DNA of 64,000 nt. It comes from Escherichia phage naam. Shown here in pieces: positions 1 through 38,932 of the stretch (positions are counted from its first letter, which is position 1; each line of letters opens with the position of its first letter). Where the stretch lies: sequence record MN850630.1. The stretch is one strand, 5' to 3'. The notes under the pieces were generated by a model. It saw nothing but the letters and a program-made list of their open reading frames with translations. It searched no databases and was not told the origin of the DNA. Both the position numbers and the translations under genes were made by a program.

Positions 1-252
1 CGTGCCAAGTTTTCTGAGCGGCTGGATCCTGATAATTTAAAGTTCGACCCTGAATTGGAGGATGTTGTATACTACTTCGACACTGTGGATGACTACGATT
101 CGTGGTTTGCAGCAATGAATCATTTCCCTCAAGGTTCTGGTATGCGCCGAATGGAAGAAGATTATCCTCCGTGTGAGCAATTCAATAGCGCAATGACTTG
201 CCTCTATGATTGGGCAGATAAGAACCTTGTCTGGATTCGAACTGCATTCTAG
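1..252 (+). CDS. hypothetical protein, 5' partial (frame open to window start)
   Basis: Frame 1 is open from nt 1 to the stop at 250-252; track ORF 55..252 is the same frame from an internal TTG. Confidence 0.4.
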   Translation, partial: RAKFSERLDPDNLKFDPELEDVVYYFDTVDDYDSWFAAMNHFPQGSGMRRMEEDYPPCEQFNSAMTCLYDWADKNLVWIRTAF

Positions 253-267
253 CAGGTGGGGGCAGGG

Positions 268-561
268 ATGCCGCTTAGAAGAGTAATAAACATGTTATAC
301 CAGAAACACGAACTTTGTGCAGAAAAAGAGTTAAATTTTGACAAAGTTATCCACAAATATTGTTACGGGAAAACCGGAAGATACCTAAAAAGGTGCACTC
401 CAGCATTCTTTCACCCCAGCAGGCGACTAAGCCCTGAAGAAGCAACAGCAGAAAGGGTTGCATACAACTGGGAAGTTGTGTACGATATTGACAGATCCGA
501 TGTGACATCTGTTTTGGAAAACTTTGAAAACACTTACACACAAGTAGAGGACTTTTACTAA
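268..561 (+). CDS. hypothetical protein
   Basis: Track ORF 256..561; in-frame ATG at 268 follows a G-rich RBS; stop overlaps next start (TAATG). Confidence 0.5.
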   Translation: MPLRRVINMLYQKHELCAEKELNFDKVIHKYCYGKTGRYLKRCTPAFFHPSRRLSPEEATAERVAYNWEVVYDIDRSDVTSVLENFENTYTQVEDFY

Positions 562-1745
562 TGTCAAGAAACGTATTTGAAAGTGGTCAAATCACTGTCC
601 GTGAGTTGCCAGCCATCATTCAGTTTGCCCAGCGTCATAACCGATCTGTCCTGATTTTAGGACCAATGGGCGTGGGGAAGAGCCAGGTGATGAAGCAGAT
701 CGCTAATAATATGTTCGGTGAGCGAGATGACAACCTGGTTGACGTGCGGCTGTCAGATAAAGATCCTGCCGACTTATCTGGGCTACCTATCCCTGTAGAA
801 GCGGATGGAACTACACGTACAGTGTTTGCAATTCCAGAATTTTGGCCTGCAGATCCGGACTGGAGCGGAATTATCTTTCTGGATGAGCTCACTCATGCAG
901 ATAATTACCTGCAAAAGGTTGCAATGCAAATTATGCTCGACCACAAGTGCGGCACCTATGCATTCCCCAAGGGCTCTGTTTTTGTAGCTGCAGGTAACCG
1001 TTCTACAGATGGTGCGGTTCTCTCGGCGCTCGAAGCTCCTCTGGCTAACCGCTTTATCATTGTAGAGGTTACAAGCAATGCAGAGGTGTTTATTGAGGAC
1101 TACGCATTCCTCAACGGGGTGCACTCATCTGTAATTGGGTATCTGAAAAGAGTTCCATCAGCTATCGATAATTATGAGGCTATGGCTGAGATTAATTGTC
1201 CATCTTTTGCCACACCGCGATCTTGGGTTGCTGCATCTGACATCTTGCACGATTTTGACAGCGGTATTATTTCTGACGCTATGGCCCGTGTTCTTCTGCA
1301 AGGTGCTATTGGTCACACTGCAGCGGTAGAGATCTGGACTTACCACACTAAGAAACGCAACTTACCGGAAATCGGTCGGATTATGGCAGGGGGTTGCAAA
1401 GAATACGTAGGTCCTAAACAGCCAGACATCTTGTGGATTCTTGGGTCTGAAGGTTGTATCGCTATTCGTAATATGATGGAAAATGCAAGTATCTCTGACG
1501 AAGATCTTGTTAGCTGTGTGGCAAACTTCCTCGATTTCCTTTGGGAAAATTTCAAGGACGAGAACCGAGATTTTGTATTCTCAGTCTTTATGGCAATGAT
1601 GAAGCCTAATGCCTTAGGAAATGCCTTACTTATCGGTAAAGGGCGTGACAAGATTGTTGCTCAGCTGATCAAAGCATACCCAAACCTGATGAAGATTGTA
1701 AAAGAGTTTGGTGAAGAGTTTAGCGCCATTTTAGCTAAAGCTTGA
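561..1745 (+). CDS. AAA+ ATPase (MoxR/AAA_5-like)
   Basis: Walker A LILGPMGVGKSQ, Walker B IIFLDELTHA, sensor-1 VAAGNRS, arginine ANRF; 394 aa. Confidence 0.8.
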   Translation: MSRNVFESGQITVRELPAIIQFAQRHNRSVLILGPMGVGKSQVMKQIANNMFGERDDNLVDVRLSDKDPADLSGLPIPVEADGTTRTVFAIPEFWPADPDWSGIIFLDELTHADNYLQKVAMQIMLDHKCGTYAFPKGSVFVAAGNRSTDGAVLSALEAPLANRFIIVEVTSNAEVFIEDYAFLNGVHSSVIGYLKRVPSAIDNYEAMAEINCPSFATPRSWVAASDILHDFDSGIISDAMARVLLQGAIGHTAAVEIWTYHTKKRNLPEIGRIMAGGCKEYVGPKQPDILWILGSEGCIAIRNMMENASISDEDLVSCVANFLDFLWENFKDENRDFVFSVFMAMMKPNALGNALLIGKGRDKIVAQLIKAYPNLMKIVKEFGEEFSAILAKA

Positions 1746-1754
1746 GGAGGTTGT

Positions 1755-2135
1755 ATGGCTAAAGTAGGTAAGCGGGGAAACTACCTAGTGGTATTGACCG
1801 AGGAGCCGGAGAAGGAGTACGAATGCAGCTCCACTTGCGTGATCGATATCCGAGAAAAAGATGTAGATGAAATCTGGTTTGAAATACTAGACGCTTGCGA
1901 CAGCAGTGATTATTTCTTCATCTATGTCAACGATAAGGCTGGGTTCTTCCATGACGACGGAGAGTTGCCGTATGAAATCTATGAACTTGTAGAGGCTTGC
2001 CATCGTGGAGATGCGGAGTTGTTTGGCCTACGGCTGAAAAGCGGTAAATTCTTCTATCAAGATGAGTGCATGAATCTTCATAACTTTGTAGAGGGAACTT
2101 GCAACGATGGAGAGATTTTGGCACACTACGATTAA
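1755..2135 (+). CDS. hypothetical protein
   Basis: ATG preceded by GAGGAGG; 126 aa; followed by an intrinsic terminator. Confidence 0.6.
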   Translation: MAKVGKRGNYLVVLTEEPEKEYECSSTCVIDIREKDVDEIWFEILDACDSSDYFFIYVNDKAGFFHDDGELPYEIYELVEACHRGDAELFGLRLKSGKFFYQDECMNLHNFVEGTCNDGEILAHYD

Positions 2136-2147
2136 TTTCTAAGACCT

Positions 2148-2175
2148 CCCCCGCTTCGGCGGGGATTTTCTATTT
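2148..2175 (+). terminator. rho-independent terminator (hand-located, +/- few bp)
   Basis: Stem tccccgc / gcgggga with ttcg loop, then T-tract ttttctattt, directly after the 1755..2135 stop. Confidence 0.6.
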
Positions 2176-2184
2176 GGAGTCATT

Positions 2185-2685
2185 GTGAAAATTAAGATCT
2201 TTGCTATTATTTTGAGCGCACTTTTATCGCTGCCTGTTGTTGCAGCACCAAAACAAAAAGTATATCATACTTGCAAGCCATCAGATACTAAGGAAAACAT
2301 TCTGGCATGCAATATCTACAGGGAAGCTAGAGGAGATGGCACGATGGGTATGCTGGCATCTGGGTTTGCCACACTAAACAGGAAATCCCACCCTAAATAC
2401 CCAGACACTATAAGAAAGATTGTCTACCAACCTAACCAGTTTTCGTGGACAAACCACGGCAAAACTTTTAAGGTGACAGAAAAAGATTCATGGGATCACG
2501 CTAAAAGTCTTGCAAAGATGCTTCTAAAGGTCTATAATAACAACCATGTTGCATACATGGCTATGGACATAACAGGTGGAGCAACACACTACCATACAAC
2601 CAAAGTACGACCGAAATGGGCAAAAAAGATGCAGAGGACAGCTCAATTCGGGAGCCATATCTACTACAAGGAGCGCAATAAATGA
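2185..2685 (+). CDS. secreted cell-wall hydrolase, SleB/CwlJ-like
   Basis: GTG start after GGAG; N-terminal signal peptide KIKIFAIILSALLSLPVVAAP; core ACNIYREARGDG...TLNRKSHPKYPDTIRKIVYQPNQFSW resembles the SleB hydrolase signature. Confidence 0.65.
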   Translation: MKIKIFAIILSALLSLPVVAAPKQKVYHTCKPSDTKENILACNIYREARGDGTMGMLASGFATLNRKSHPKYPDTIRKIVYQPNQFSWTNHGKTFKVTEKDSWDHAKSLAKMLLKVYNNNHVAYMAMDITGGATHYHTTKVRPKWAKKMQRTAQFGSHIYYKERNK

Positions 2686-4664
2686 TCGTAAACAGTAATG
2701 AAACTAAAGCGGTACTAACCGGTAATATGGAGGTCACCAGGGGCTCAATTTCTCTGAACAAAGAGACTTTTGGGCTAATCATTAAAGGGATTTACGAAGA
2801 TAAGGTGCTGGCAAGCTGCCGTGAACCAATCTTCAATGCCGTGGACTCCCATGTTGAGTCTGGACGGGGTGATGTACCGATCATTATTCACTCTCCTACA
2901 GACCTTGAACCATACTTCTTTGTGCAGGACGTCGGATTGGGCATGTCAGAAGAGATGGTCCGCAACACTTTCATGAACCTCGGGGAGTCAACCAAGCGCA
3001 ACAGCAACGCTCTGGTAGGTAATAAAGGTGTTGGTTCAAAGGCTCCGTTCAGCATGGTGGACACTTTCGATGTTATCAGTGTGCACAATGGTGTTGAAAG
3101 CACATATCTATTGTTCTTGGATCAGGGTATCCCAAACGTTACCAAGATCCGTGAGCGGAAGACTGAAGAGCACAACGGGGTAAAAGTTCAGTTCCATGTT
3201 AAGAAAGAGCATGTCCTGAAATATCGCACTGCTATTGCATCGTGCTTACGCTATGCGAAGTTTCCGTTCATCGTCACCGATCCTATGACCAGTAAGATGT
3301 TAGAAGGTGACAAGGTTGAGGCACAGTATCATTACGAGAAGGATGGCTGGAAAATGACCATCCTGAAAGGTTATACCAGTTCTGATGAGAGCCGTGTTGT
3401 GATGGGTCACCAACCTTACCGCTCTAAGTTTCTGGAAACATTGACAGACTACCCTGCAATCTGCGTGGAAATTCCTATTGGGGATTGCAATATTAACCCT
3501 GGGCGTGAATGGACCATAGAGGGCCATGACGACGGTGGATTCCAGGATCGCCTGGAGGCATTTGTTAAAGAAGGTATACGTCTTCGCGGGGCAGAAGTTG
3601 TTGCAGAACTGGAGACGGCAAAAACCTCCGCAGAAGCACGTGAAATGATGAAGAATAGTGGAGTGTTCGGACACATCTTCGGCAAGAACTTTATGTGGAA
3701 CCGTTGGGAAGAAACAGGGCTTGGCGACTTAGGCGATTGTGAAATTTTCGCTGGCGGCTTAAATAAAGGCCGCATAGGCTATGCTCGTTACGGAAAGTCG
3801 GAGTTCTTACGAGGTGTATACCTTGTATTTAACGACGGAGACGGCAAATATAACCGGAATAAGTGTAACTACTTAAGCGAGATCACCGGACGCAACGTTT
3901 TCTATTGCCGGAACACGGATCTGGTGAAAGAGTTTAAAGAGGCGGCACACCATCCGTTCTTTGCAGATACGGTCAAATTGTTATCGGAGCTTCCACGCCG
4001 ACCTGCGAAGAAAGGTGAAACCAAAACTCGTTACGAGCCAGGCTACTGGGTTAAGAAGCTTAGAGAGGATGGCTACTTCCATCGTGAGCGCCTCACGAAG
4101 GCAGAGTTCAAGAAGATTAAGCATTGCATCCCTTATGAGGGGGATATCCAACGGGGAAGCTGCTGGCTGGGCCAGATGAGTAACATCTACCAGCAAAATT
4201 ATGACCGTGTGCGTGCTGCACTCCAGATTCCTGAAGGTGAAGATCTGTACCTGGTATCAGAATCTCGTCTGCTTTGGACTGATCCTGATTGCCAGTATGT
4301 TACAGAGAAGAATGTGGAACATTTGTTGAAAGAGGATGCTTGGAAATTCTTACTGACTCGCGCAGCAAATGAAACTTCATATGACAGCCTATATAGACAA
4401 TTAGGGAAAATTATCCCCATGCAGGATTTTGGAAATTATCGGCCACATTTCCACAAGTGGGAAGGTAACACCGCGTGGAAGCACAGTGAGCTAAATCATC
4501 GTGCCAAAATCTTAATCGCCAACCGGGTTAAGTGCGGGAAGGCCTATATTGCAAGATTGGAAAAGAAATATCCACTTTTGAAGCATGTGGGCTTGAAATA
4601 TTGGGACACTCCTGCTATGATTGAATACCGTGAACTGATCGATACAAAGAATAACATCAAATAA
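2682..4664 (+). CDS. rIIA: rIIA-like protein with N-terminal GHKL (Hsp90/MutL-type) ATPase domain
   Basis: Bergerat-fold motifs: N-box EPIFNAVDS, G1 VQDVGLGMS, NLGESTK, G2 GNKGVGSKAPF; 660 aa with a 401-aa partner immediately downstream, the T4 rIIA/rIIB arrangement. Assignment by inference. Confidence 0.5.
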   Translation: MIVNSNETKAVLTGNMEVTRGSISLNKETFGLIIKGIYEDKVLASCREPIFNAVDSHVESGRGDVPIIIHSPTDLEPYFFVQDVGLGMSEEMVRNTFMNLGESTKRNSNALVGNKGVGSKAPFSMVDTFDVISVHNGVESTYLLFLDQGIPNVTKIRERKTEEHNGVKVQFHVKKEHVLKYRTAIASCLRYAKFPFIVTDPMTSKMLEGDKVEAQYHYEKDGWKMTILKGYTSSDESRVVMGHQPYRSKFLETLTDYPAICVEIPIGDCNINPGREWTIEGHDDGGFQDRLEAFVKEGIRLRGAEVVAELETAKTSAEAREMMKNSGVFGHIFGKNFMWNRWEETGLGDLGDCEIFAGGLNKGRIGYARYGKSEFLRGVYLVFNDGDGKYNRNKCNYLSEITGRNVFYCRNTDLVKEFKEAAHHPFFADTVKLLSELPRRPAKKGETKTRYEPGYWVKKLREDGYFHRERLTKAEFKKIKHCIPYEGDIQRGSCWLGQMSNIYQQNYDRVRAALQIPEGEDLYLVSESRLLWTDPDCQYVTEKNVEHLLKEDAWKFLLTRAANETSYDSLYRQLGKIIPMQDFGNYRPHFHKWEGNTAWKHSELNHRAKILIANRVKCGKAYIARLEKKYPLLKHVGLKYWDTPAMIEYRELIDTKNNIK

Positions 4665-4674
4665 GGAGACCAAG

Positions 4675-5880
4675 ATGATTTTCATCTACGAACATTTCAA
4701 AACCCGTAAAGAAGCACGAGACCGCCGTGCAGAACTTGAGAAGAAGGGTTTCACATGTGCCATTGAGAAAGGCGACACAACCTGGACACTGGCAGTTGGT
4801 GCCCCAGAGTTGTTCGATCCTGACCGTGACAGCGTCTGCTACACCCGTGAGGATTTTGAAACCCGCGAAGAGGCCCGTTTATTTCGATACGGTCTGGAAG
4901 ATAACGGTAAGTACGCTATGATCTTAGATTTAGGCGAAGGTTCCGTTAAACGTTGGGGCGTGGTATACCCACTGTGTGTTGTTCACGGTGTGGGGTTCAC
5001 TGGGGTAGCAATCAAGTCAGAAGAACCTTTAGTAGAAGTCAAAGATCCGGTGCTGGAGGTGGTGAGCAGTGTGTCTCAGCAACAGACTCGAAGCATCGAG
5101 CCTTTGGTAGTTATTTGTGGGGAACTCCTCCAGATCACCTGCAACGAAGGCATTTTTGAAATTCGCCGCAGCGAAAGTGAGGAAGTTTACCAGAAAGTCT
5201 TCGACCATATCTCTGTTCAGGAATATGATGAGGCAATTGGTGAAATCCTTGTCTGGCTGGAACGCAAGAATGAGTTCACCACACTTGCAGACAACCTGAT
5301 CATGAAAGATGGTAAGCTCTACTACTACGGTGTAGAGATGCGATCCACCATTGCAAAGAAAATTGAGAAAGATTATGCAGACGGAACGCTGGATGACCGC
5401 TATGTGAAATTCCTCGTTCGCCTGCTACGCAATCCTTCTGCAAAATCTGTAAACATGCTCTACGATTTTATGCAGGCCAACGATATCCAGATTGCCGAAG
5501 ATGGTCGAATCATTTGCTACAAAGGGGTTCAGTTTAACGGCAGCAAGTGGGTGGATTGGCACAGTGGTAAAGTTCCACAATACCAGGGTGCTTTTGTATC
5601 CATGCCTCGTAACTTTGTAGAGGATGATCCGGAAGCTGCGTGCTCCTATGGCTTACACTGCGCCAGCAAAGAGTATGCAAAGAGCTACGGCACTGTAATG
5701 ACTGTTATGGTTGATCCTGCAGATGTGGTTAGTGTGCCATACCAACACAATAGCGCTAAGTGCCGTGCATGCCGCTATGAGATTGTGGTAGCTCCGGAAG
5801 CACGCAAAGATGGAGACCCTATTGAATATGTAGTTGATCGTGACGGTAACACTATCGACATTCTTTACGAGGAGGCGTAA
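4675..5880 (+). CDS. rIIB: putative rIIB-like partner protein
   Basis: Position directly after the rIIA-like gene, size 401 aa, AAGGAG RBS; no diagnostic motif recognised. Confidence 0.3.
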   Translation: MIFIYEHFKTRKEARDRRAELEKKGFTCAIEKGDTTWTLAVGAPELFDPDRDSVCYTREDFETREEARLFRYGLEDNGKYAMILDLGEGSVKRWGVVYPLCVVHGVGFTGVAIKSEEPLVEVKDPVLEVVSSVSQQQTRSIEPLVVICGELLQITCNEGIFEIRRSESEEVYQKVFDHISVQEYDEAIGEILVWLERKNEFTTLADNLIMKDGKLYYYGVEMRSTIAKKIEKDYADGTLDDRYVKFLVRLLRNPSAKSVNMLYDFMQANDIQIAEDGRIICYKGVQFNGSKWVDWHSGKVPQYQGAFVSMPRNFVEDDPEAACSYGLHCASKEYAKSYGTVMTVMVDPADVVSVPYQHNSAKCRACRYEIVVAPEARKDGDPIEYVVDRDGNTIDILYEEA

Positions 5881-7250
5881 TGGAAAAAGGGCAGTATGAT
5901 GTAGGCACAGATGCTGCCCTCGTTGCAATCATGAGCGGTGAGAATGTCTTCGTTTCAGGACCCGCAGGTTGTGGGAAGACGTACCTCATCAACATGATCC
6001 AGTCAATGTATGGAGACTCTTGCATAACGGTTGCCCCGACAGGGGTAGCCGCTTTAAACGTTAATGGAGCAACAGCACACCGAACCTTCGATCTTGCAGC
6101 AGGTGTGAGCATGGAGTCGGACTGGACCGCAATAAGGGCAAAAACAGCAAAGCCTTTGAAAAGCAAGGCATTTACCATCCTAATTATCGATGAAATCTCT
6201 ATGATCCGTGCTGATAAGTTTATAGAGATGGATAGGAAACTCCGCTTCCTTCGAAAAAATGACAAACCTTTCGGGGGCATACAGGTCATATTGTTTGGCG
6301 ATTTTTACCAGGCACCTCCTGTTGTCTCTTCTATGGAGAAGGAAGCCTACTTCAACTTCTACCATACGGACCTGTGTTGCTATACCGAATCTTGGAAAGA
6401 GCTTGACCTCCACAACATAGCCCTAATAGATCAGTTCCGACAGGAGTCTATTCGATTTGCTACAATGCTCAACTGTGTTCGTGAGGGTCGTCGCATAAAA
6501 GAGGTTGTAGCAGAACTTAATGCTCGCTGTTACAAAGGAGGTGTACCAACAGACGCTCTCACAATTTGCGCCACCAACAAACAAGCAGAGGAAGTGAACA
6601 GAAGGTTCTATGATGCCATCAACGCCCCAGAGAAGGTATACACTGGTGAAATGAAGGGTAAGTTTCCCTCCACCCTGCCAGTTGAGCAGGAGATGAAGTT
6701 GAAAATTGGCATGAAAGTTATGATAACCGCCAACGATGTTGACCCGACGCACAAAGTACCTTATTATGTTAACGGAACACGTGCCACAATTGTTAAATTT
6801 AAGAACAAGGCGGTGGTGGTAGAGCTTGAAGATGGAACACAGGTTGACATAGAGCAGAGGTTGTGGGAGAATAACGAGTATAAGCCATCTCAGAGATACA
6901 ACATTGCAGAAAGGAAGATGGAGAAGTTTATAGAGAGGGTAGTGATTGGGTCATACAAGCAACTTCCTCTGAAATCTGGGTACGCCGTAACATCTCATAA
7001 AAGTCAAGGACTTACACTAGATTGTTACAACCTAGACCTTGGAAAGAACGGAGCTTTCTCTCCTGGGATGACGTATGTCGCTTTGAGTAGAGTTAAGACA
7101 ATACAAGGGATAAACTTGTTGCGTCCACTAAGAGAAGTTGACATTATTGTTGACCCGCGAGTCGTAGAGTTTTACAATACAACATTCCCTGACTTAGACA
7201 AAATTGTCAGGAAAGATTTTGAAACCAGAGCCGAAGAGGGGGACGTATGA
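5880..7250 (+). CDS. SF1 DNA helicase (Dda/PIF1/RecD-like)
   Basis: Walker A VSGPAGCGKTYL, Walker B LIIDEISMI, ILFGDFYQAPPV, C-terminal SHKSQGLTLD and YVALSRVK motifs. Confidence 0.8.
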   Translation: MEKGQYDVGTDAALVAIMSGENVFVSGPAGCGKTYLINMIQSMYGDSCITVAPTGVAALNVNGATAHRTFDLAAGVSMESDWTAIRAKTAKPLKSKAFTILIIDEISMIRADKFIEMDRKLRFLRKNDKPFGGIQVILFGDFYQAPPVVSSMEKEAYFNFYHTDLCCYTESWKELDLHNIALIDQFRQESIRFATMLNCVREGRRIKEVVAELNARCYKGGVPTDALTICATNKQAEEVNRRFYDAINAPEKVYTGEMKGKFPSTLPVEQEMKLKIGMKVMITANDVDPTHKVPYYVNGTRATIVKFKNKAVVVELEDGTQVDIEQRLWENNEYKPSQRYNIAERKMEKFIERVVIGSYKQLPLKSGYAVTSHKSQGLTLDCYNLDLGKNGAFSPGMTYVALSRVKTIQGINLLRPLREVDIIVDPRVVEFYNTTFPDLDKIVRKDFETRAEEGDV

Positions 7251-7588
7251 GTTTGTGGAGAAATATAGTTAACTACGTGTGTGGCAATCCAACTCCTGAA
7301 GAGAAGGATGTTTTGATTCACGATTTTACTAAAAGATCCCGTGAAAAAGATCTACTGTTAACAAAGGTGACTGATAAAGACCCTGCAGTAGGGGACTGGG
7401 CAGGTTTTGCGTTTACATCGGACAAATACACCTTTAACAAAGGTGACTACCTTGTTGTGGATTTTAACGAAGACATCGAGGGTGCTGAACCTTACTATCA
7501 GACCCTTATTGTTGCAGGGTGTGTTAATCTATCTTCAGGCATGCACAGTTTGATTCTTTTTGAGCTTGACTCTGAAGACCTTGAGTAG
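7247..7588 (+). CDS. hypothetical protein
   Basis: ATGA start/stop overlap with the helicase gene; 113 aa. Confidence 0.55.
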   Translation: MSLWRNIVNYVCGNPTPEEKDVLIHDFTKRSREKDLLLTKVTDKDPAVGDWAGFAFTSDKYTFNKGDYLVVDFNEDIEGAEPYYQTLIVAGCVNLSSGMHSLILFELDSEDLE

Positions 7589-7649
7589 TAAGATGTGAGT
7601 ATAAAGGGGAGGCCTCCTCCCCACAAAAAACTAAGGAGAGCACCAAACG

Positions 7650-8975
7650 ATGAGCAAAACCAAATTAGAACTTACCTGGATAGGTAAAAACGAGCGCAAA
7701 AAGTTAGAGCCGCACATTTTATTAGAAGATTCTAGCAAGTCTTACCGCAGCCAGAAAGTGACCGAAAACGATATTTTTGATAATAAACTGATTTTTGGAG
7801 ATAACTTATTAGCATTGAAGGCGCTAGAGCAAGAGTATGCAGGCAAAGTGAAGTGTGTTTACATAGACCCGCCATTCAATACCGGGAGGGCTTTTGAGCA
7901 CTACGATGATAGCCTGGAGCATTCCATTTGGCTGGGCTTAATGAGGGATAGGTTAGAAATAATTCGTAATCTTCTAAGTGATGATGGGGTAATATTCGTT
8001 CACTTAGATGATTGCGAAATGGCGTATTTAAAAGTTTTGATGGACGAGATTTTTGGTCGTGCAAATCAGTTAAATACCATATCGATGACCACAAATTCCC
8101 CTTCGGGATTTAAGGCAACAGGAGCCACAGTTTTCTCCACAGCAAACTTTTTGCTTGTATATGCAAAAGATCGCACCCAGAAACCGCTTAACAAAATCTA
8201 TATACCTAAAGGGTACGATACAGGATATAACAAATACCTATTAAACCCGGATGACCATTATAAAAATTGGACGTGGTGCAGTATTGCCGATGCGTTTGCA
8301 AAGGCCAATGGCTATAAGGATGCAAAAGAAGCCAAGAAAAAACTACCTGACACATTCGATGATGAATTAGCACAATTCGCAATTGATAATGCAGAACGTG
8401 TATTTCAATCTGTTGCAATTGGTGGTGGTGCTAAAATAAAGAGAAAAGAAACTATCGAGAAGTCAAAGAAAGATAGGGATAAGGTTTATGTACATCCAAA
8501 TGAGGATGTTGAAGGATTTTATATCGCAAATGGTAGGCAAATGGTCTTTTACTCCAATAGACTTTTGGAAATTGACGGTGAGATGCAACCTGCGGAACTA
8601 ATAACTGATGTTTGGACTGATATTAGTTGGAATGGAATAGCAAATGAAGGCGGCGTCAGTTTCAAAAATGGGAAAAAACCAGAAGCGCTTTTGAAGCGGA
8701 TTTTAGAAATGTGTACGCGAGAAGGCGATTTGGTATTGGATTCATTCGGTGGTTCGGGAACTACTGCTGCTGTAGCTCACAAGATGAAAAGACGTTGGAT
8801 CTCAATCGAGCTAGGTGATCATTGTCATACCCATATTATTCCGCGCTTGGAAAAAGTGATCGATGGCGAAGATCAAGGCGGTATTTCTAAGTCTGTAAAC
8901 TGGAAAGGTGGTGGTGGCTTCCGTTATTACAAACTTACCCCGACCTTAATTGCGAAAGATAAGTCTGATCAATAA
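7650..8975 (+). CDS. DNA amino-methyltransferase (N6-adenine or N4-cytosine, beta class)
   Basis: Motif IV DPPF (IDPPFNTG) near the N-terminus and motif I FGGSGTTAAVA near the C-terminus; AAGGAG RBS; 441 aa. Confidence 0.8.
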   Translation: MSKTKLELTWIGKNERKKLEPHILLEDSSKSYRSQKVTENDIFDNKLIFGDNLLALKALEQEYAGKVKCVYIDPPFNTGRAFEHYDDSLEHSIWLGLMRDRLEIIRNLLSDDGVIFVHLDDCEMAYLKVLMDEIFGRANQLNTISMTTNSPSGFKATGATVFSTANFLLVYAKDRTQKPLNKIYIPKGYDTGYNKYLLNPDDHYKNWTWCSIADAFAKANGYKDAKEAKKKLPDTFDDELAQFAIDNAERVFQSVAIGGGAKIKRKETIEKSKKDRDKVYVHPNEDVEGFYIANGRQMVFYSNRLLEIDGEMQPAELITDVWTDISWNGIANEGGVSFKNGKKPEALLKRILEMCTREGDLVLDSFGGSGTTAAVAHKMKRRWISIELGDHCHTHIIPRLEKVIDGEDQGGISKSVNWKGGGGFRYYKLTPTLIAKDKSDQ

Positions 8976-8988
8976 AGAGTACAATCAA

Positions 8989-9294
8989 ATGATGAAACGT
9001 TATAAACCATACACTTTTGAAATCGATTTCGAACTTGACGATATGTTCACTGTGGAAGCTCAGGCAGTTGTCCAGTTGCCAGACCCAGCGTGCCGTGATT
9101 CTGATGTTGACTATTATGGATTTAGACAAATTACCGATGTGCATGTTTACCACAACGGTGAAGAGGTGGACTTCCACAAACTGCCAAACGATATGCGCCA
9201 CTCAATTTACAAACGTGCAGCCCGTGAACTAGAGTCCTATCTTGATGCAGCGACGACAGCAGCTGCATTTGCCGAAGAAGTGGGAGGTTTCTGA
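8989..9294 (+). CDS. hypothetical protein
   Basis: Track ORF 8950..9294; first ATG clear of the upstream methyltransferase gene is at 8989. Confidence 0.5.
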   Translation: MMKRYKPYTFEIDFELDDMFTVEAQAVVQLPDPACRDSDVDYYGFRQITDVHVYHNGEEVDFHKLPNDMRHSIYKRAARELESYLDAATTAAAFAEEVGGF

Positions 9295-9689
9295 TGATTA
9301 CAGGTGTGAAGATTATCCAATACCACTTAACCAAGTTGGAAGATGCTGAGAAAGAGCTTGCAGAAGTTCTGAACAGTGGATATACTTTGCTATCATGCGC
9401 CTGTTCAGACACCTACGCTGTGTGGACACTTATCCGGAAGGAAGAGCCTGCAGGGATCTTGGTGCCAAACCCTAAGATTATTAGTGAGGTGGATGACTAC
9501 CCCCAAGACGGCCTGCCAGAAGGCTGGGAAGTATGGGAAGGTGGTGAAAACCCTGCACCAGGTAAGTGGGTAAAATACAAACTACGTAGTGGTGCACAGT
9601 ACGCTGACTACTCTGATGACCTAGACTGGAGTCATTCTTCACCAGGATCGTCTGCAAGTTCATATGATATCGTTGCTTTTCAGGAATAA
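9294..9689 (+). CDS. hypothetical protein
   Basis: Coupled start (TGATG) with GGGAGG RBS; 131 aa. Confidence 0.55.
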   Translation: MITGVKIIQYHLTKLEDAEKELAEVLNSGYTLLSCACSDTYAVWTLIRKEEPAGILVPNPKIISEVDDYPQDGLPEGWEVWEGGENPAPGKWVKYKLRSGAQYADYSDDLDWSHSSPGSSASSYDIVAFQE

Positions 9690-35217: not shown

Positions 35218-35235
35218 TTTTTTAACTGAATTATC

Positions 35236-35260
35236 AAGGGGCTTAGGCCCCTTTCTTTTT
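35236..35260 (+). terminator. rho-independent terminator ending the plus-strand block
   Basis: Stem aaggggc / gcccctt then TCTTTTTG. Confidence 0.65.
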
Positions 35261-35878
35261 GTCTGCTCTTCCCCCTACCATAAACGGCCCTACCTGGCAA
35301 GTGGAATAATTGACGAGCCATCAATCCTACACACTGTACAAACATACATGTAAAATAGCTATTGCATAACCTTTCATTGTGTGGTAGCGGTGCTATTTTT
35401 TACCAGTTTTCCTTCCAAAATTGCACGTAATGCCGCTATTGCACAAATTTTAACCTGATGCACATCTCCAATATCTTGTCAACAACTAAAAATCTTTATA
35501 AGTCATACACTTACACAGCATCGAAAGCGTGTTCTACGCGAAAAATCGAGTATAACTATAGCCGCCAGATCTCAGAATTCACGTACGCACGCCATTCTAT
35601 AGCCTGCAAAGTATTTATTCCAACCACAGAATAACGGAATAGTCAATACCTGCATAAAATAATTATTAGTGTAAACTGCATAACATAAATCAGCTCAGGT
35701 GTCAACATTTTTCGTAAACAGTCCGAAATTATCACGATGAGTTATCATAAACAGAGAAATCTTTAGTCGTCTAATGTTTACTGTACATTACTATACTGAC
35801 TGGAATCATTAGATGACTAAGAGAAAGATAAGAAATAATTAATAATGTAATTGTTTTACCTGTAACAATAAGGCAACT

Positions 35879-35898
35879 ATGCAAACGAATGGCATGGC
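35879..35898 (+). repeat. 20-bp direct repeat ATGCAAACGAATGGCATGGC, copy 1
   Basis: Exact second copy at 36140..36159. Confidence 0.7.
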
Positions 35899-36015
35899 GC
35901 GACGGAGTCGCGACATAATATAAAAGCAGTAACCATCACCCCCGTGATAGTTTGTCTGCAATCTATTAATCAGATCATAGTTGCCTTGTATTCAGTTAAT
36001 CATGACATGATAAGC

Positions 36016-36047
36016 AAGGCAACTATAGATCTTCTAATAGTTGCCCT
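36016..36047. repeat. palindromic site GGCAACTAT-N10-ATAGTTGCC
   Basis: Further copies of the arm at about 35870 (AAGGCAACTAT) and 35977 (ATAGTTGCCTT); operator-like or iteron-like. Confidence 0.55.
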
Positions 36048-36170
36048 GCTTTTATATTATGTCATAGAAACACCCGAAGGGGTGACCAAAGGTCACCTGG
36101 CATAGCCAGTGAAAGATTATTAACTTGCTAATAGTTATCATGCAAACGAATGGCATGGCTGATTATCGGT

Positions 36171-36257
36171 GTGTAAACAGTCAATCATGTAAATGGTTAG
36201 CATGTGAACAATCAGAAATGTAAACAATCCAGTGTGTAAACTAATAGGTGTGTAAAA
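36171..36257 (+). repeat. cluster of (G)TGTAAAC(A) repeats
   Basis: GTGTAAACAG, ATGTAAACAA, TGTGTAAAC and GTGTAAAAG within 90 bp; further GTAAACAG at about 35714, 36511 and 37221, and on the minus strand at about 36368. Confidence 0.55.
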
Positions 36258-36851
36258 GTGTCATGTTGTGTCAGTTAGGTCACATTATGTCAGACAAGTT
36301 TTTCTCCTCTTTGTCAAGTGCTGCATGAAAAATTTACAAGCTTGTATGGTAGCATTTTTGCGGCCCTGTTTACATTCAGTGTTGTATGTATAATCCTTGT
36401 TGTGTGGGCGTTTAGACGTCTGGACGGTCAGAAGTCTGCAGGTTAATATCTAATCTATCGGCTGCTAACTATATCCCACACAAATAGTAAGAAATATAAT
36501 TGTTATGTGCGTAAACAGTAACCCATGTTATCAATCCCTGTATGTATCGCCAGTGGTGCGCATAATGGGTATTATGTTAAATTGCCCGTAATGATAACAG
36601 TTCTCACAATGATAGGTATTCTCATTCACCCCCACAAGATAGGTTGCAAATGTTGTGCCACTGTGTGAACGGCCTGGCCTATTAATTTGCCTCACTGCCT
36701 TGATATTTGAGAATTATTATAAGAATGAGAAGTATTCCCATTTCGTCCGCCTGGCAGCACTCCTGTAGGTCAGGTCAAAATCGTGGTAGAACTAGACCTA
36801 TCCGGATATTTCTGGCTGACTCTTCAGGTCTGTGTGGGAAAAGCCAACCTC

Positions 36852-36866
36852 TCCGGCGGGGCAGGG
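36852..36866 (+). repeat. 15-bp GC-rich direct repeat TCC(C)GGCGGGGCAGGG, copy 1
   Basis: Second copy at 36999..37015; CTCTTCAGG recurs at about 36820, 36904 and 37351. Confidence 0.5.
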
Positions 36867-37710
36867 GGAGGTCAATTAAAAAATTTACGTGGTGTATGAA
36901 GCGCTCTTCAGGTAAGGCAGGTATTATGGGATGAAACCCGCTTCAGGCAATGATATTTGTGGGTGTGATATTTGCTGGAAGGCCAGATATGACGGGACTC
37001 CCGGCGGGGCAGGGGTAGTACAGACAGGGAAAATATGGGGATGTAGTTGGGGAAATTGATCAGACAGGTAGAGTATGGAATATGTTACAGGTATGTTAAA
37101 TATGGAGGTTGAATATCTGTAGGATTTGTGTGTAAAATCAAAGACTTAAGGGGTGTTGTGGTATTTTCTATAAATAATTCAAGTTTAATAGGCAATATTT
37201 GTCTCTATCCGCTTTGTGTGGTAAACAGATTCAGATGAGATTGGTTTACAAGTGTATACATAATATACAAATTAAAGATACAAGAAACCCCCCTCCCCCT
37301 TCGGCTACCATTCACCTTTTCCTCTGACTGGTACTTAAACACTTATTCAGACTCTTCAGGTTATCACCCATATATCATATGGCAGTGACTGGTGTCCTCC
37401 GGCCCCTCTTTCGTCACCCGTCCGCTTCGCCATGCTAATGCCATAGCTAATGGTTCGGTTGTTCACCCTGTTCACTCAGGTGTATCTCTATACCCCTTCA
37501 AACCGAAGAGAACAGAAAACCCGAATTACTCGGTAAAAGAAAAGAGAAGAACTTAATTTTATCAGGATAGGCAAGAATGTCAAGGCATGACTGCTCACTA
37601 AACAAGCAAACAGTCATGTGTGGGAGGTAAGTGATTGTGGTGGTAGGAAATTTAGTTGAAAGATGTGTTATAGGTGCTTCCAGCACTTTAGCCGGGCAGC
37701 TAATTGTGTG

Positions 37711-38620: not shown

Positions 38621-38932
38621 CTATACCCATGAGGGCTTATCAAGGTTGGAGTAGCTGAAAGGTGTCAAAAGGTGACTGTCAAAATCTCTCAAACTATCTA
38701 AATCTTTTTCCTCGTCCTGACACCATCTGTGCCTACATTTATTGTTGTAGTGCATAGAATGCATAGCGTTCTGCAATTTAACAGGCACAAGTGATTCAGG
38801 AGTAGATAGTATTGTTGGGTATGCCAGAACCACCTCAAACAGTGGAAACACATCGAAACTAAAGTCTACCTCTGCAGAGGTTGATGGCATGTAAGAGTAT
38901 TTAGCCGCCTTTGTAGACATAATCCACCTCAC
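38621..38932 (-). CDS. hypothetical protein
   Basis: 103 aa; ATGA coupling with the upstream gene. Confidence 0.5.
   Translation of the reverse strand: MRWIMSTKAAKYSYMPSTSAEVDFSFDVFPLFEVVLAYPTILSTPESLVPVKLQNAMHSMHYNNKCRHRWCQDEEKDLDSLRDFDSHLLTPFSYSNLDKPSWV

Follow-up and report, generated by a model that had tools for sequence, protein, structure and literature searches.

Escherichia phage naam (sequence record MN850630.1) carries, at one end of the 64,000-nucleotide stretch analysed here (the window), an AAA+ ATPase, an exported cell-wall hydrolase and homologues of the T4 proteins rIIA and rIIB, all encoded on one strand. The arrangement raises the question of whether these genes form a single module, possibly a novel one, or are neighbours with separate tasks. 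We consider it very probable that this is a conserved, co-oriented, non-structural Vequintavirus block accommodating three independent neighbouring functions: the ATPase with its adaptor, the exported hydrolase, and rIIA/rIIB. The features of the locus are the following:

256..561, + strand: small ORF, 101 aa from a GTG start; PHROG 13164, E 1e-56
561..1745, + strand: MoxR-class AAA+ ATPase of the phage N4 gp24 family, 394 aa; PHROG 1297, E 1e-110
1755..2135, + strand: acidic, Cys-containing protein of 126 aa; PHROG 12370 only
2149..2164, + strand: GC-rich hairpin CCCCGC-UUCG-GCGGGG, then a U-rich tract
2185..2685, + strand: Hydrolase_2 (SleB-like) cell-wall hydrolase with predicted export, 166 aa, GTG start
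2682..4664, + strand: rIIA homologue, 660 aa; PHROG 612 "RIIA", E 3e-124, full length
4675..5880, + strand: rIIB homologue, 401 aa; PHROG 609 "RIIB", E 1e-61
5880..7250, + strand: flanking PIF1/Dda-like SF1 helicase, its start overlapping the rIIB stop by 1 nt

An established block of the rV5-like phages

The window shares 98.6% nucleotide identity with phage nomine and was assigned to Vequintavirus, the rV5-like E. coli myoviruses. The ORFs 561-1745, 2185-2685, 2682-4664 and 4675-5880 lie on the + strand exactly where the initial annotation had placed them, and the long ORFs with their strong profile matches are far beyond chance. Vequintavirus genomes differ from the window by point differences only (97-98.6% nucleotide identity), and gene set, order, lengths and overlaps are identical in rV5, nomine (nomine_61 to nomine_65) and the BASEL phages Bas53 to Bas59, an example of the orthologous set being bas54_0063 to bas54_0067 of Bas54. 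At least 82 phage records contain the complete block in nearly invariant form, and in Vequintavirus records its genes go by the GenBank names MoxR ATPase, cell wall hydrolase, rIIA and rIIB. Published work on this phage group (PMC7344957) has likewise dealt with its rII pair and its exported SleB-like enzyme. The combination, initially described as unusual, is thus a conserved, annotated and previously discussed one whose adjacency is lost in sister genera. The ATPase/exported hydrolase/rIIA/rIIB block of this phage is already known; since it stands near-unchanged in more than 80 sequenced phages and is annotated there, it is ordinary and not a new system.

Published transposon-insertion data are available from the HIDEN-SEQ preprint (10.1101/2025.11.20.689424) for phage Bas54, which is 98% identical. 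All five genes from bas54_0063 to bas54_0067 are non-essential on K-12, and in a clinical isolate (labelled CFE303 in the supplementary sheet heading and 311 in the file names) the ATPase gene was depleted with a log2FC of -7.2, while those of the hydrolase, rIIA and rIIB were unchanged (10.1101/2025.11.20.689424). The same source lists as non-essential the orthologues of the small ORF 256..561 (bas54_0062) and of the 126-aa protein (bas54_0064), and reports strong depletion of the helicase orthologue bas54_0068 in the clinical isolate (10.1101/2025.11.20.689424). The small ORF, given 89-97 aa in GenBank annotations (nomine_60, bas56_0060), overlaps the ATPase start with its stop by 1 nt. Searches with the 126-aa protein returned zero Pfam or NCBIfam matches, and tblastn was blank in the fetched loci of Certrevirus, N4, Salmonella phage 40 and Justusliebigvirus-like phages; the equal-sized ORF located 5' of the hydrolase in Certrevirus falls in another PHROG. 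The hairpin at 2149..2164, directly 5' of the hydrolase ribosome-binding site (GGAG, 2176-2179), is predicted to be a terminator-like or RNA-stability element, and hairpins of other sequence occupy the same position in Certrevirus, Seunavirus and three Justusliebigvirus/Phapecoctavirus-like phages. A sigma-70 promoter scan of window positions 1-9500 gave matches no commoner than in shuffles, and no fitting sigma-70 promoter was found in the interval from the hairpin to the hydrolase start.

The putatively exported hydrolase and the rII pair

The 166-aa product covers the entire Pfam Hydrolase_2 profile (PF07486; 70.4 bits against a cut-off of 27, E 2e-19) and begins with the signal-peptide-like sequence MKIK-IFAIILSALLSLPVVA|AP, in which a Sec signal peptide is predicted over residues 1-20 (2185-2244; VVA|A), bearing out the SleB-like, signal-peptide-bearing hydrolase of the initial annotation. 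A putative catalytic residue is also in place: Glu47 (codon 2323-2325), part of the motif YREARGD, lines up with the YGESRGE Glu of the SleB structures 4F55 and 4FET, which we take to be the catalytic residue of SleB, and it is invariant in seven divergent phage homologues. Cys30 and Cys42 are conserved as a pair. Signal-peptide-like N-termini recur in six of these seven homologues, PaoP5 having a hydrophobic N-terminal anchor instead. Bacillus SleB (PDB 4F55, 4FET) and the phage proteins CB7_83, CR3_087 and T5.083 share with our hydrolase the Hydrolase_2 domain, the Y-x-E-[AS]-R-G motif and the invariant Glu, and the three phage proteins have N-terminal signal peptides too, whereas the N-terminal peptidoglycan-binding domain of SleB is missing from the window protein. 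Orthology to SleB was ruled out by the score against the SleB equivalog TIGR02869 (48.3 bits against a cut-off of 236.5, profile positions 82-201 only), the catalytic domain alone being in common. The host produces no spore cortex, and the substrate must therefore be ordinary peptidoglycan. As judged from its sequence, the protein would be exported by Sec to the periplasm and act there through a SleB-type lytic-transglycosylase domain. A signal peptide and toxicity in E. coli have been reported for its homologue CB7_83 (PMC7344957).

Immediately downstream, the 660-aa and 401-aa proteins, initially read as rIIA-like and rIIB-like, are by profile and alignment true homologues of T4 rIIA and rIIB. 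Besides the PHROG 612 and 609 matches and a gene order as in T4, BLASTP aligned the first with T4 rIIA over residues 1-190 (28% identity, E 3e-21), collinear from the first residue and with motifs I to III in register, and the C-terminal domain of the second with that of T4 rIIB over 204 aa (37% identity, E 4e-39). The rIIA homologue matches HATPase_c_3 above the cut-off (E 2e-8) and has an N-terminal GHKL (Bergerat) ATPase fold at about residues 28-190, with the motifs E48/N52/D55, D83-x-G85-x-G87 and G113-x-x-G116-x-G118. The N-terminal part of the rIIB homologue is a pair of beta-alpha-beta-beta units (residues 3-42 and 56-99), which a low-confidence linker (102-141) joins to a conserved C-terminal domain at about residues 143-375. 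Sequence searches of the PDB gave nothing usable for rIIA (best match TRAP1, E 0.1) and chance matches only for rIIB, and NCBIfam has no matching model for either protein. As in naam, the T4 genes are adjacent, on a single strand and in the same order, the T4 pair lying on the minus strand across the record start. T4 rIIA is longer (725 against 660 aa), with a match at profile level only past residue 200, while T4 rIIB is shorter (312 against 401 aa), the N-terminal region of the naam protein being different and longer. The T4 rII pair protects against RexAB-type abortive infection: T4 needs it to grow on lambda-lysogenic, RexAB-bearing hosts, and its rII mutants lyse rapidly. Dispensability of the pair in Bas54 is thus to be expected on hosts without RexAB, and neither orthologue, bas54_0066 or bas54_0067, is essential on K-12 BW25113 or on the one clinical isolate (10.1101/2025.11.20.689424).

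The rIIA start codon overlaps the hydrolase stop (ATGA, 2682-2685) with no terminator in between, and we read rIIA as translationally coupled to the hydrolase. It could be argued from this overlap that hydrolase, rIIA and rIIB make up one envelope-directed unit, in which rII "membrane integrity" proteins restrain a co-translated muralytic enzyme until lysis. The Certrevirus slot 3' of the hydrolase fits such an idea, as it is taken by a small membrane protein (PHROG 10205) that has been proposed as a holin, and so does the toxicity of CB7_83 when expressed alone (PMC7344957). However, stop/start codon overlaps are the norm genome-wide, and the two halves of the supposed unit occur separately: Certrevirus, Justusliebigvirus-like phages and T5 have the exported hydrolase without adjoining rIIAB, whereas N4 and T4 have rIIAB without such a hydrolase adjoining. 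Furthermore, Bas54 tolerates single insertions in the hydrolase, rIIA and rIIB genes each, and the rII insertions carry no toxicity signature (10.1101/2025.11.20.689424). A joint envelope-directed unit is therefore improbable in our judgement, and we keep to the reading of independent neighbours, in which rIIA and rIIB would form a T4-type rII pair of their own.

Even less credit can be given to the possibility that the 166-aa protein is the real endolysin, of signal-peptide or SAR type, exported early and activated on membrane depolarisation. It does match PHROG 938 "endolysin" (E 2e-27), its N-terminus has a hydrophobic segment that in the Certrevirus homologue is Ala/Ser-rich, like SAR domains, and the homologue CR3_087 has been called "implicated in host lysis" (PMC7344957). 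On the other hand, a distinct endolysin (PHROG 90, E 2e-56) is encoded elsewhere in the genome, with a small membrane protein next to it and Rz-like spanins also present, and the h-region of the hydrolase is Leu/Ile-rich (56% L/I/V/F/M) with a predicted VVA|A cleavage motif. The transposon data point the same way: the canonical endolysin gene of Bas54, bas54_0202, was free of insertions at its 24 TA sites; the non-essential hydrolase orthologue, bas54_0065, by contrast, was hit at 32 of its 36 TA sites with high read counts (10.1101/2025.11.20.689424). Both synteny and these data conflict with the SAR-type endolysin that the initial annotation had offered as an alternative. The protein would rather be an accessory enzyme distinct from the lysis endolysin, and accessory exported hydrolases of this kind occur in more than a thousand phage genomes.

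The ATPase and its distant candidate partner

The product of 561..1745 has a complete AAA+ core with Walker A (GPMGVGKS, residues 34-41), Walker B (D108-E109), sensor 1, arginine finger and sensor 2. Residues G37, G39, K40, S41, D108, E109, N146, R147, R164 and R220 are invariant in 20 homologues, down to 30% identity. Since its own Pfam AAA matches all stay below the gathering thresholds (AAA_5, 16.7 bits against 22; bpMoxR, 15.9 against 27), assignment to the MoxR class, which agrees with the MoxR/AAA_5-type ATPase first annotated, rests on transitive homology and predicted fold. In homologues of roughly 34% identity, AAA_3, AAA_5 and bpMoxR are assigned by precomputed Pfam annotation, and a PDB profile search retrieved midasin AAA modules (E 6e-10). 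The top 14 PDB matches of the AF2 model (pLDDT 82) in Foldseek are NorQ and CbbQ (E 8e-9 to 3e-7), the NorQ matches coming from structures of the NorQ-NorD VWA complex.

That the ATPase, the 126-aa protein, the hydrolase and rIIA/rIIB should act as one novel ATPase-driven module, as might be thought from tightly packed genes on one strand whose order is conserved within Vequintavirus, is the least credible reading of all, because it conflicts with synteny (the terminator-like hairpin separating the 126-aa ORF from the hydrolase is a structure kept across genera, the ATPase lies apart from the hydrolase in Seunavirus and Certrevirus CR3, and its usual neighbour elsewhere is a DUF2201 gene) and with the published transposon data, in which conditional essentiality in the clinical isolate touches the ATPase and spares hydrolase and rII (10.1101/2025.11.20.689424). 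The distance between ATPase and hydrolase is 6.4 kb in Seunavirus, and a 15-kb stretch around the CR3 ATPase is devoid of the hydrolase. The Certrevirus order is hydrolase, small membrane proteins and helicase, with no rIIAB and the ATPase elsewhere; the placement of the helicase 3' of the hydrolase is thus also kept there.

The ATPase had been described as having no vWA partner, which is true inside the window only, where tblastn found no vWA gene. In nomine, the closest complete genome, the gene nomine_53, which lies about 3.6 kb upstream in opposite orientation and just outside the window, encodes a protein with DUF2201_N and a DUF2201 VWA-like domain, containing the motifs HEVGH (HExxH, metallopeptidase-like) and DVSGS (MIDAS). 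It is the orthologue of the ATPase-adjoining gene in Certrevirus CR3 and N4, and DUF2201_N + DUF2201 proteins directly adjoin the ATPase as N4 gp25, as CR3 gp113 and in a metagenomic phage. NCBIfam has no matching model for the DUF2201 protein, and a literature search found no function for N4 gp24/gp25. By analogy with NorQ-NorD and CbbQ-CbbO, the ATPase would be a hexamer working with a VWA-domain adaptor, and this adaptor would be the DUF2201 protein, its gene relocated some 3.6 kb upstream to the other strand. The "orphan" MoxR ATPase would then be no orphan, having a VWA/metallopeptidase partner across the strand.

What such a pair might do is suggested by the orthologue bas54_0063, which is required against the two-gene defence system DS-28 and dispensable on K-12, the preprint naming the ATPase only, not the DUF2201 gene, as the anti-DS-28 factor (10.1101/2025.11.20.689424). 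In the clinical isolate the DUF2201 gene of Bas54, bas54_0055, was also depleted, although modestly (log2FC -2.2, padj 0.009; supplementary table, 10.1101/2025.11.20.689424). Given that both genes are depleted in one clinical host, it is tempting to speculate on a two-protein way of beating DS-28. We put forward tentatively, as a possibility with the balance still against it, that ATPase and DUF2201 protein make an ATP-driven counter-defence machine remodelling or cleaving a DS-28 component in rV5-like, N4-like and jumbo phages.

Comparison with known systems places this candidate pair closest to other ATPases with VWA partners. In NorQ-NorD, CbbQ-CbbO and N4 gp24/gp25 the partner likewise contains a VWA-like domain bearing a MIDAS motif. 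To our knowledge, the HExxH metallopeptidase-like domain present in the DUF2201 partner is absent from NorD and CbbO. The N4 homologue gp24 is 27% identical to the window ATPase, and our protein differs from gp24 and from NorQ/CbbQ in having about 130 additional, helical residues in its C-terminal part. As regards gene arrangement, the partner gene adjoins that of the ATPase in N4, whereas in Vequintavirus and Seunavirus it lies a few kb away in opposite orientation.

Gene block and its prior description

The plus strand of window positions 1-9000 carries a tightly packed series of ORFs, among them the five-gene block running from a MoxR-class ATPase to an rIIB homologue:

256-561, plus strand: 101-aa ORF (ORF scan)
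561-1745, plus strand: 394-aa ATPase ORF (PHROG 1297 'ATPase', E 1e-110)
1755-2135, plus strand: 126-aa ORF (ORF scan)
2185-2685, plus strand: 166-aa hydrolase ORF, GTG start preceded by a GGAG ribosome-binding site (Hydrolase_2, E 2e-19)
2682-4664, plus strand: 660-aa rIIA homologue (HATPase_c_3, E 2e-8; PHROG 612 'RIIA', E 3e-124, full length)
4675-5880, plus strand: 401-aa rIIB homologue (PHROG 609 'RIIB', E 1e-61)
5880-7250, plus strand: 456-aa PIF1/Dda-like helicase (profile searches)

The ORF coordinates of the initial annotation matched these ORFs exactly, every one of its domain calls found support in profile searches and the protein identities it had proposed were right. Megablast assigned the window to the genus Vequintavirus (rV5-like E. 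coli myoviruses of ~137 kb), phage nomine, the closest complete genome, being 98.6% identical to the region, at least 80% of which is present in at least 82 records. Genes in the matching records already bear the labels MoxR ATPase, cell wall hydrolase (SleB), rIIA and rIIB; moreover, SleB-like proteins with signal peptides have been described in all Vequintavirinae genera, and rIIA/rIIB in rV5 and PVP-SE1, being absent from Certrevirus (Buttimer et al., PMC7344957). Therefore, the block is real but already described, and the combination that had been regarded as unusual is a previously known and annotated one. Sixteen MG0656xx records of 'Campylobacter phage' (C5, D1, A142 and others), carrying a Campylobacter jejuni label, are 97-98% identical to the region, which looks like host mislabelling or coliphage carry-over.

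MoxR-class ATPase and its DUF2201 partner

All Pfam matches of the ATPase itself were sub-threshold. Evidence for its placement in the MoxR class comes from homology to N4 gp24, the AAA_3, AAA_5 and bpMoxR domains of relatives at ~34% identity, the invariant Walker A, Walker B, sensor and arginine residues, and an AlphaFold model (pLDDT 82) whose nearest structures are NorQ and CbbQ, both MoxR ATPases; some of the NorQ matches are structures solved in complex with the NorD VWA domain. The ATPase had been thought to have no vWA partner, and no DUF2201/VWA-type partner gene was found within the window. Inspection of the gene adjoining the ATPase in other phages revealed a protein with DUF2201_N (putative metallopeptidase) and DUF2201 (VWA-like) domains in N4 (gp25), Certrevirus CR3 (gp113) and a metagenomic phage contig. 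The Vequintavirus orthologue, nomine_53 (33% identity to CR3 gp113, E 7e-98), contains the two domains together with an HEVGH motif and a MIDAS motif, DVSGS, and maps to the opposite strand ~3.6 kb upstream of the ATPase, just beyond the window edge; thus, the missing partner was an effect of the window's starting point. The two genes are likewise split in Seunavirus 4MG.

The nomine locus upstream of the window (L013 3767-3837; nomine 53.5-53.7 kb) carries back-to-back sigma-70-like promoters, TTGACT-17-TATAGT (+) and TTGACA-17-TACGAT (-), in a 143-bp divergent gap with the anti-sigma/DUF2201 genes on one arm and the fucosyltransferase-to-ATPase genes on the other. These predicted promoters suggest divergent expression of the ATPase and its partner from a single control region. 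DUF2201 and the adjoining Srd-like anti-sigma protein (PHROG 1314, PHROG 3118, CR3 gp113, 4MG gp109 and gp107) are labelled 'HNH endonuclease' in PHROGs and some RefSeq records, probably an annotation error hiding the MoxR partner.

Transposon insertions have been mapped by HIDEN-SEQ in the related Vequintavirus Bas54 (MaxBurger), where the orthologues of the five block ORFs (bas54_0063 to bas54_0067) and the DUF2201 gene bas54_0055 are all non-essential on K-12, and the text describes the MoxR ATPase as necessary for overcoming the two-gene defence system DS-28 of E. coli CFE311 (10.1101/2025.11.20.689424). In the supplementary resampling table, whose sheet is headed CFE303 with file names reading 311, the ATPase has a log2FC of -7.23 and the DUF2201 protein of -2.20 (padj 0.009), with hydrolase, rIIA and rIIB unchanged (10.1101/2025.11.20.689424). 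These data are consistent with an ATPase-DUF2201 pair and argue against the proposal that the block forms a single ATPase-based module. A possible counter-defence machine formed by the MoxR ATPase together with its relocated VWA/metallopeptidase partner is the only reading here with some novelty.

The same preprint (10.1101/2025.11.20.689424) bears on other loci of the window. The second gene that it reports as required against DS-28, bas54_0140 (log2FC -5.48), is 99% identical to a 99-aa ORF at 38624-38920 on the minus strand. The orthologue of the helicase at 5880-7250 is non-essential on K-12 and has a log2FC of -6.32 (padj 0) in the clinical isolate, a depletion absent from the main-text discussion. 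The counterpart of a Bas54 intergenic region without insertions is the ~2.5 kb at 35218-37710, the junction where plus-strand genes stop and minus-strand genes start; it is partly AT-rich, its ORFs do not exceed 82 aa, and neither tRNAs nor Rfam families were detected in it. Short repeats are dense here: ATAGTTGCC[CT]TG recurs in both direct and inverted orientation, GTGTGTAAAC occurs four times, one 20-nt sequence is repeated exactly, and there is an 18-nt inverted repeat without mismatches. This region could be a replication origin or other essential non-coding locus.

SleB-like hydrolase and its neighbourhood

The hydrolase catalytic domain aligns to the SleB structures 4F55 and 4FET, and Glu47 (codon 2323-2325), within a YREARGD motif, is invariant in 7 divergent phage homologues. 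It is not a SleB orthologue: the N-terminal domain is missing, and its score in the SleB equivalog model, 48 bits, is far below the cut-off of 236. Its N-terminus resembles a signal peptide (basic n-region, 15-residue Leu/Ile-rich h-region, VVA|A motif); homologues from Certrevirus, Justusliebigvirus-like phages and T5 (T5.083) carry equivalent predicted signal peptides of unrelated sequence, and the one from PaoP5 has a hydrophobic N-terminal anchor in that place. Within the rV5-like group, Cys30 and Cys42 are a conserved pair. Homologues are found in 1,239 phage records, and therefore large virulent phages of Gram-negative hosts commonly encode an exported SleB-like enzyme among their non-structural genes. 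Toxicity to E. coli has been reported for the CB7 homologue (Buttimer et al., PMC7344957). A role as SAR-type endolysin, considered earlier, is disfavoured by the Bas54 data, in which the SleB-like gene tolerated insertions at 32/36 sites whereas the canonical endolysin had none at its 24 TA sites (10.1101/2025.11.20.689424). Elsewhere, the phage genome encodes a distinct endolysin (PHROG 90) as well as Rz-like spanins.

In Certrevirus, two small proteins (one of them a membrane protein) and then the helicase come after the hydrolase, with no rIIAB, and the CR3 ATPase sits in a different neighbourhood whose surrounding 15 kb lack the hydrolase. In Seunavirus 6.4 kb separate ATPase and hydrolase, and neither ATPase nor rIIAB is near the hydrolase in Justusliebigvirus-like phages. 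Besides, the 126-aa ORF and the hydrolase are separated by a GC-rich hairpin carrying a U-tract (2149-2164); a GC-rich hairpin directly precedes the SleB-like gene in 6 lineages, its structure being kept and its sequence differing:

2133-2190, window
5846-5904, L006 (this and the following are loci of other phage lineages)
~5800-5904, L007, L008 and L009
14716-14767, L022

In 3 of the 5 other lineages, the Justusliebigvirus/Phapecoctavirus-like phages, it is followed by a promoter-like TTGCAA-17-TATACT or TTGCAA-17-TACAAT. The evidence of synteny in other genera and of the hairpin says that the gene combination is not a module.

The rIIA/rIIB pair

Direct comparison with T4 identified both proteins as T4-type rIIA and rIIB by sequence. 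The 660-aa protein is 28% identical to T4 rIIA over residues 1-190 (E 3e-21), with three GHKL motifs in register (E48/N52/D55, D83-x-G-x-G87 and G113-x-x-G-x-G118), and the 401-aa protein is 37% identical to T4 rIIB over 204 conserved C-terminal residues (E 4e-39). A PDB sequence search found no solved relatives of either. In the rIIB N-terminus, two conserved beta-alpha-beta-beta units lead into a linker of low confidence. By analogy with T4, the pair would protect against RexAB; a CARD-gasdermin defence system is triggered by T6 RIIB (PMC10312443). As in T4, rIIA precedes rIIB on the same strand. The rIIB of the window is longer than its T4 counterpart.
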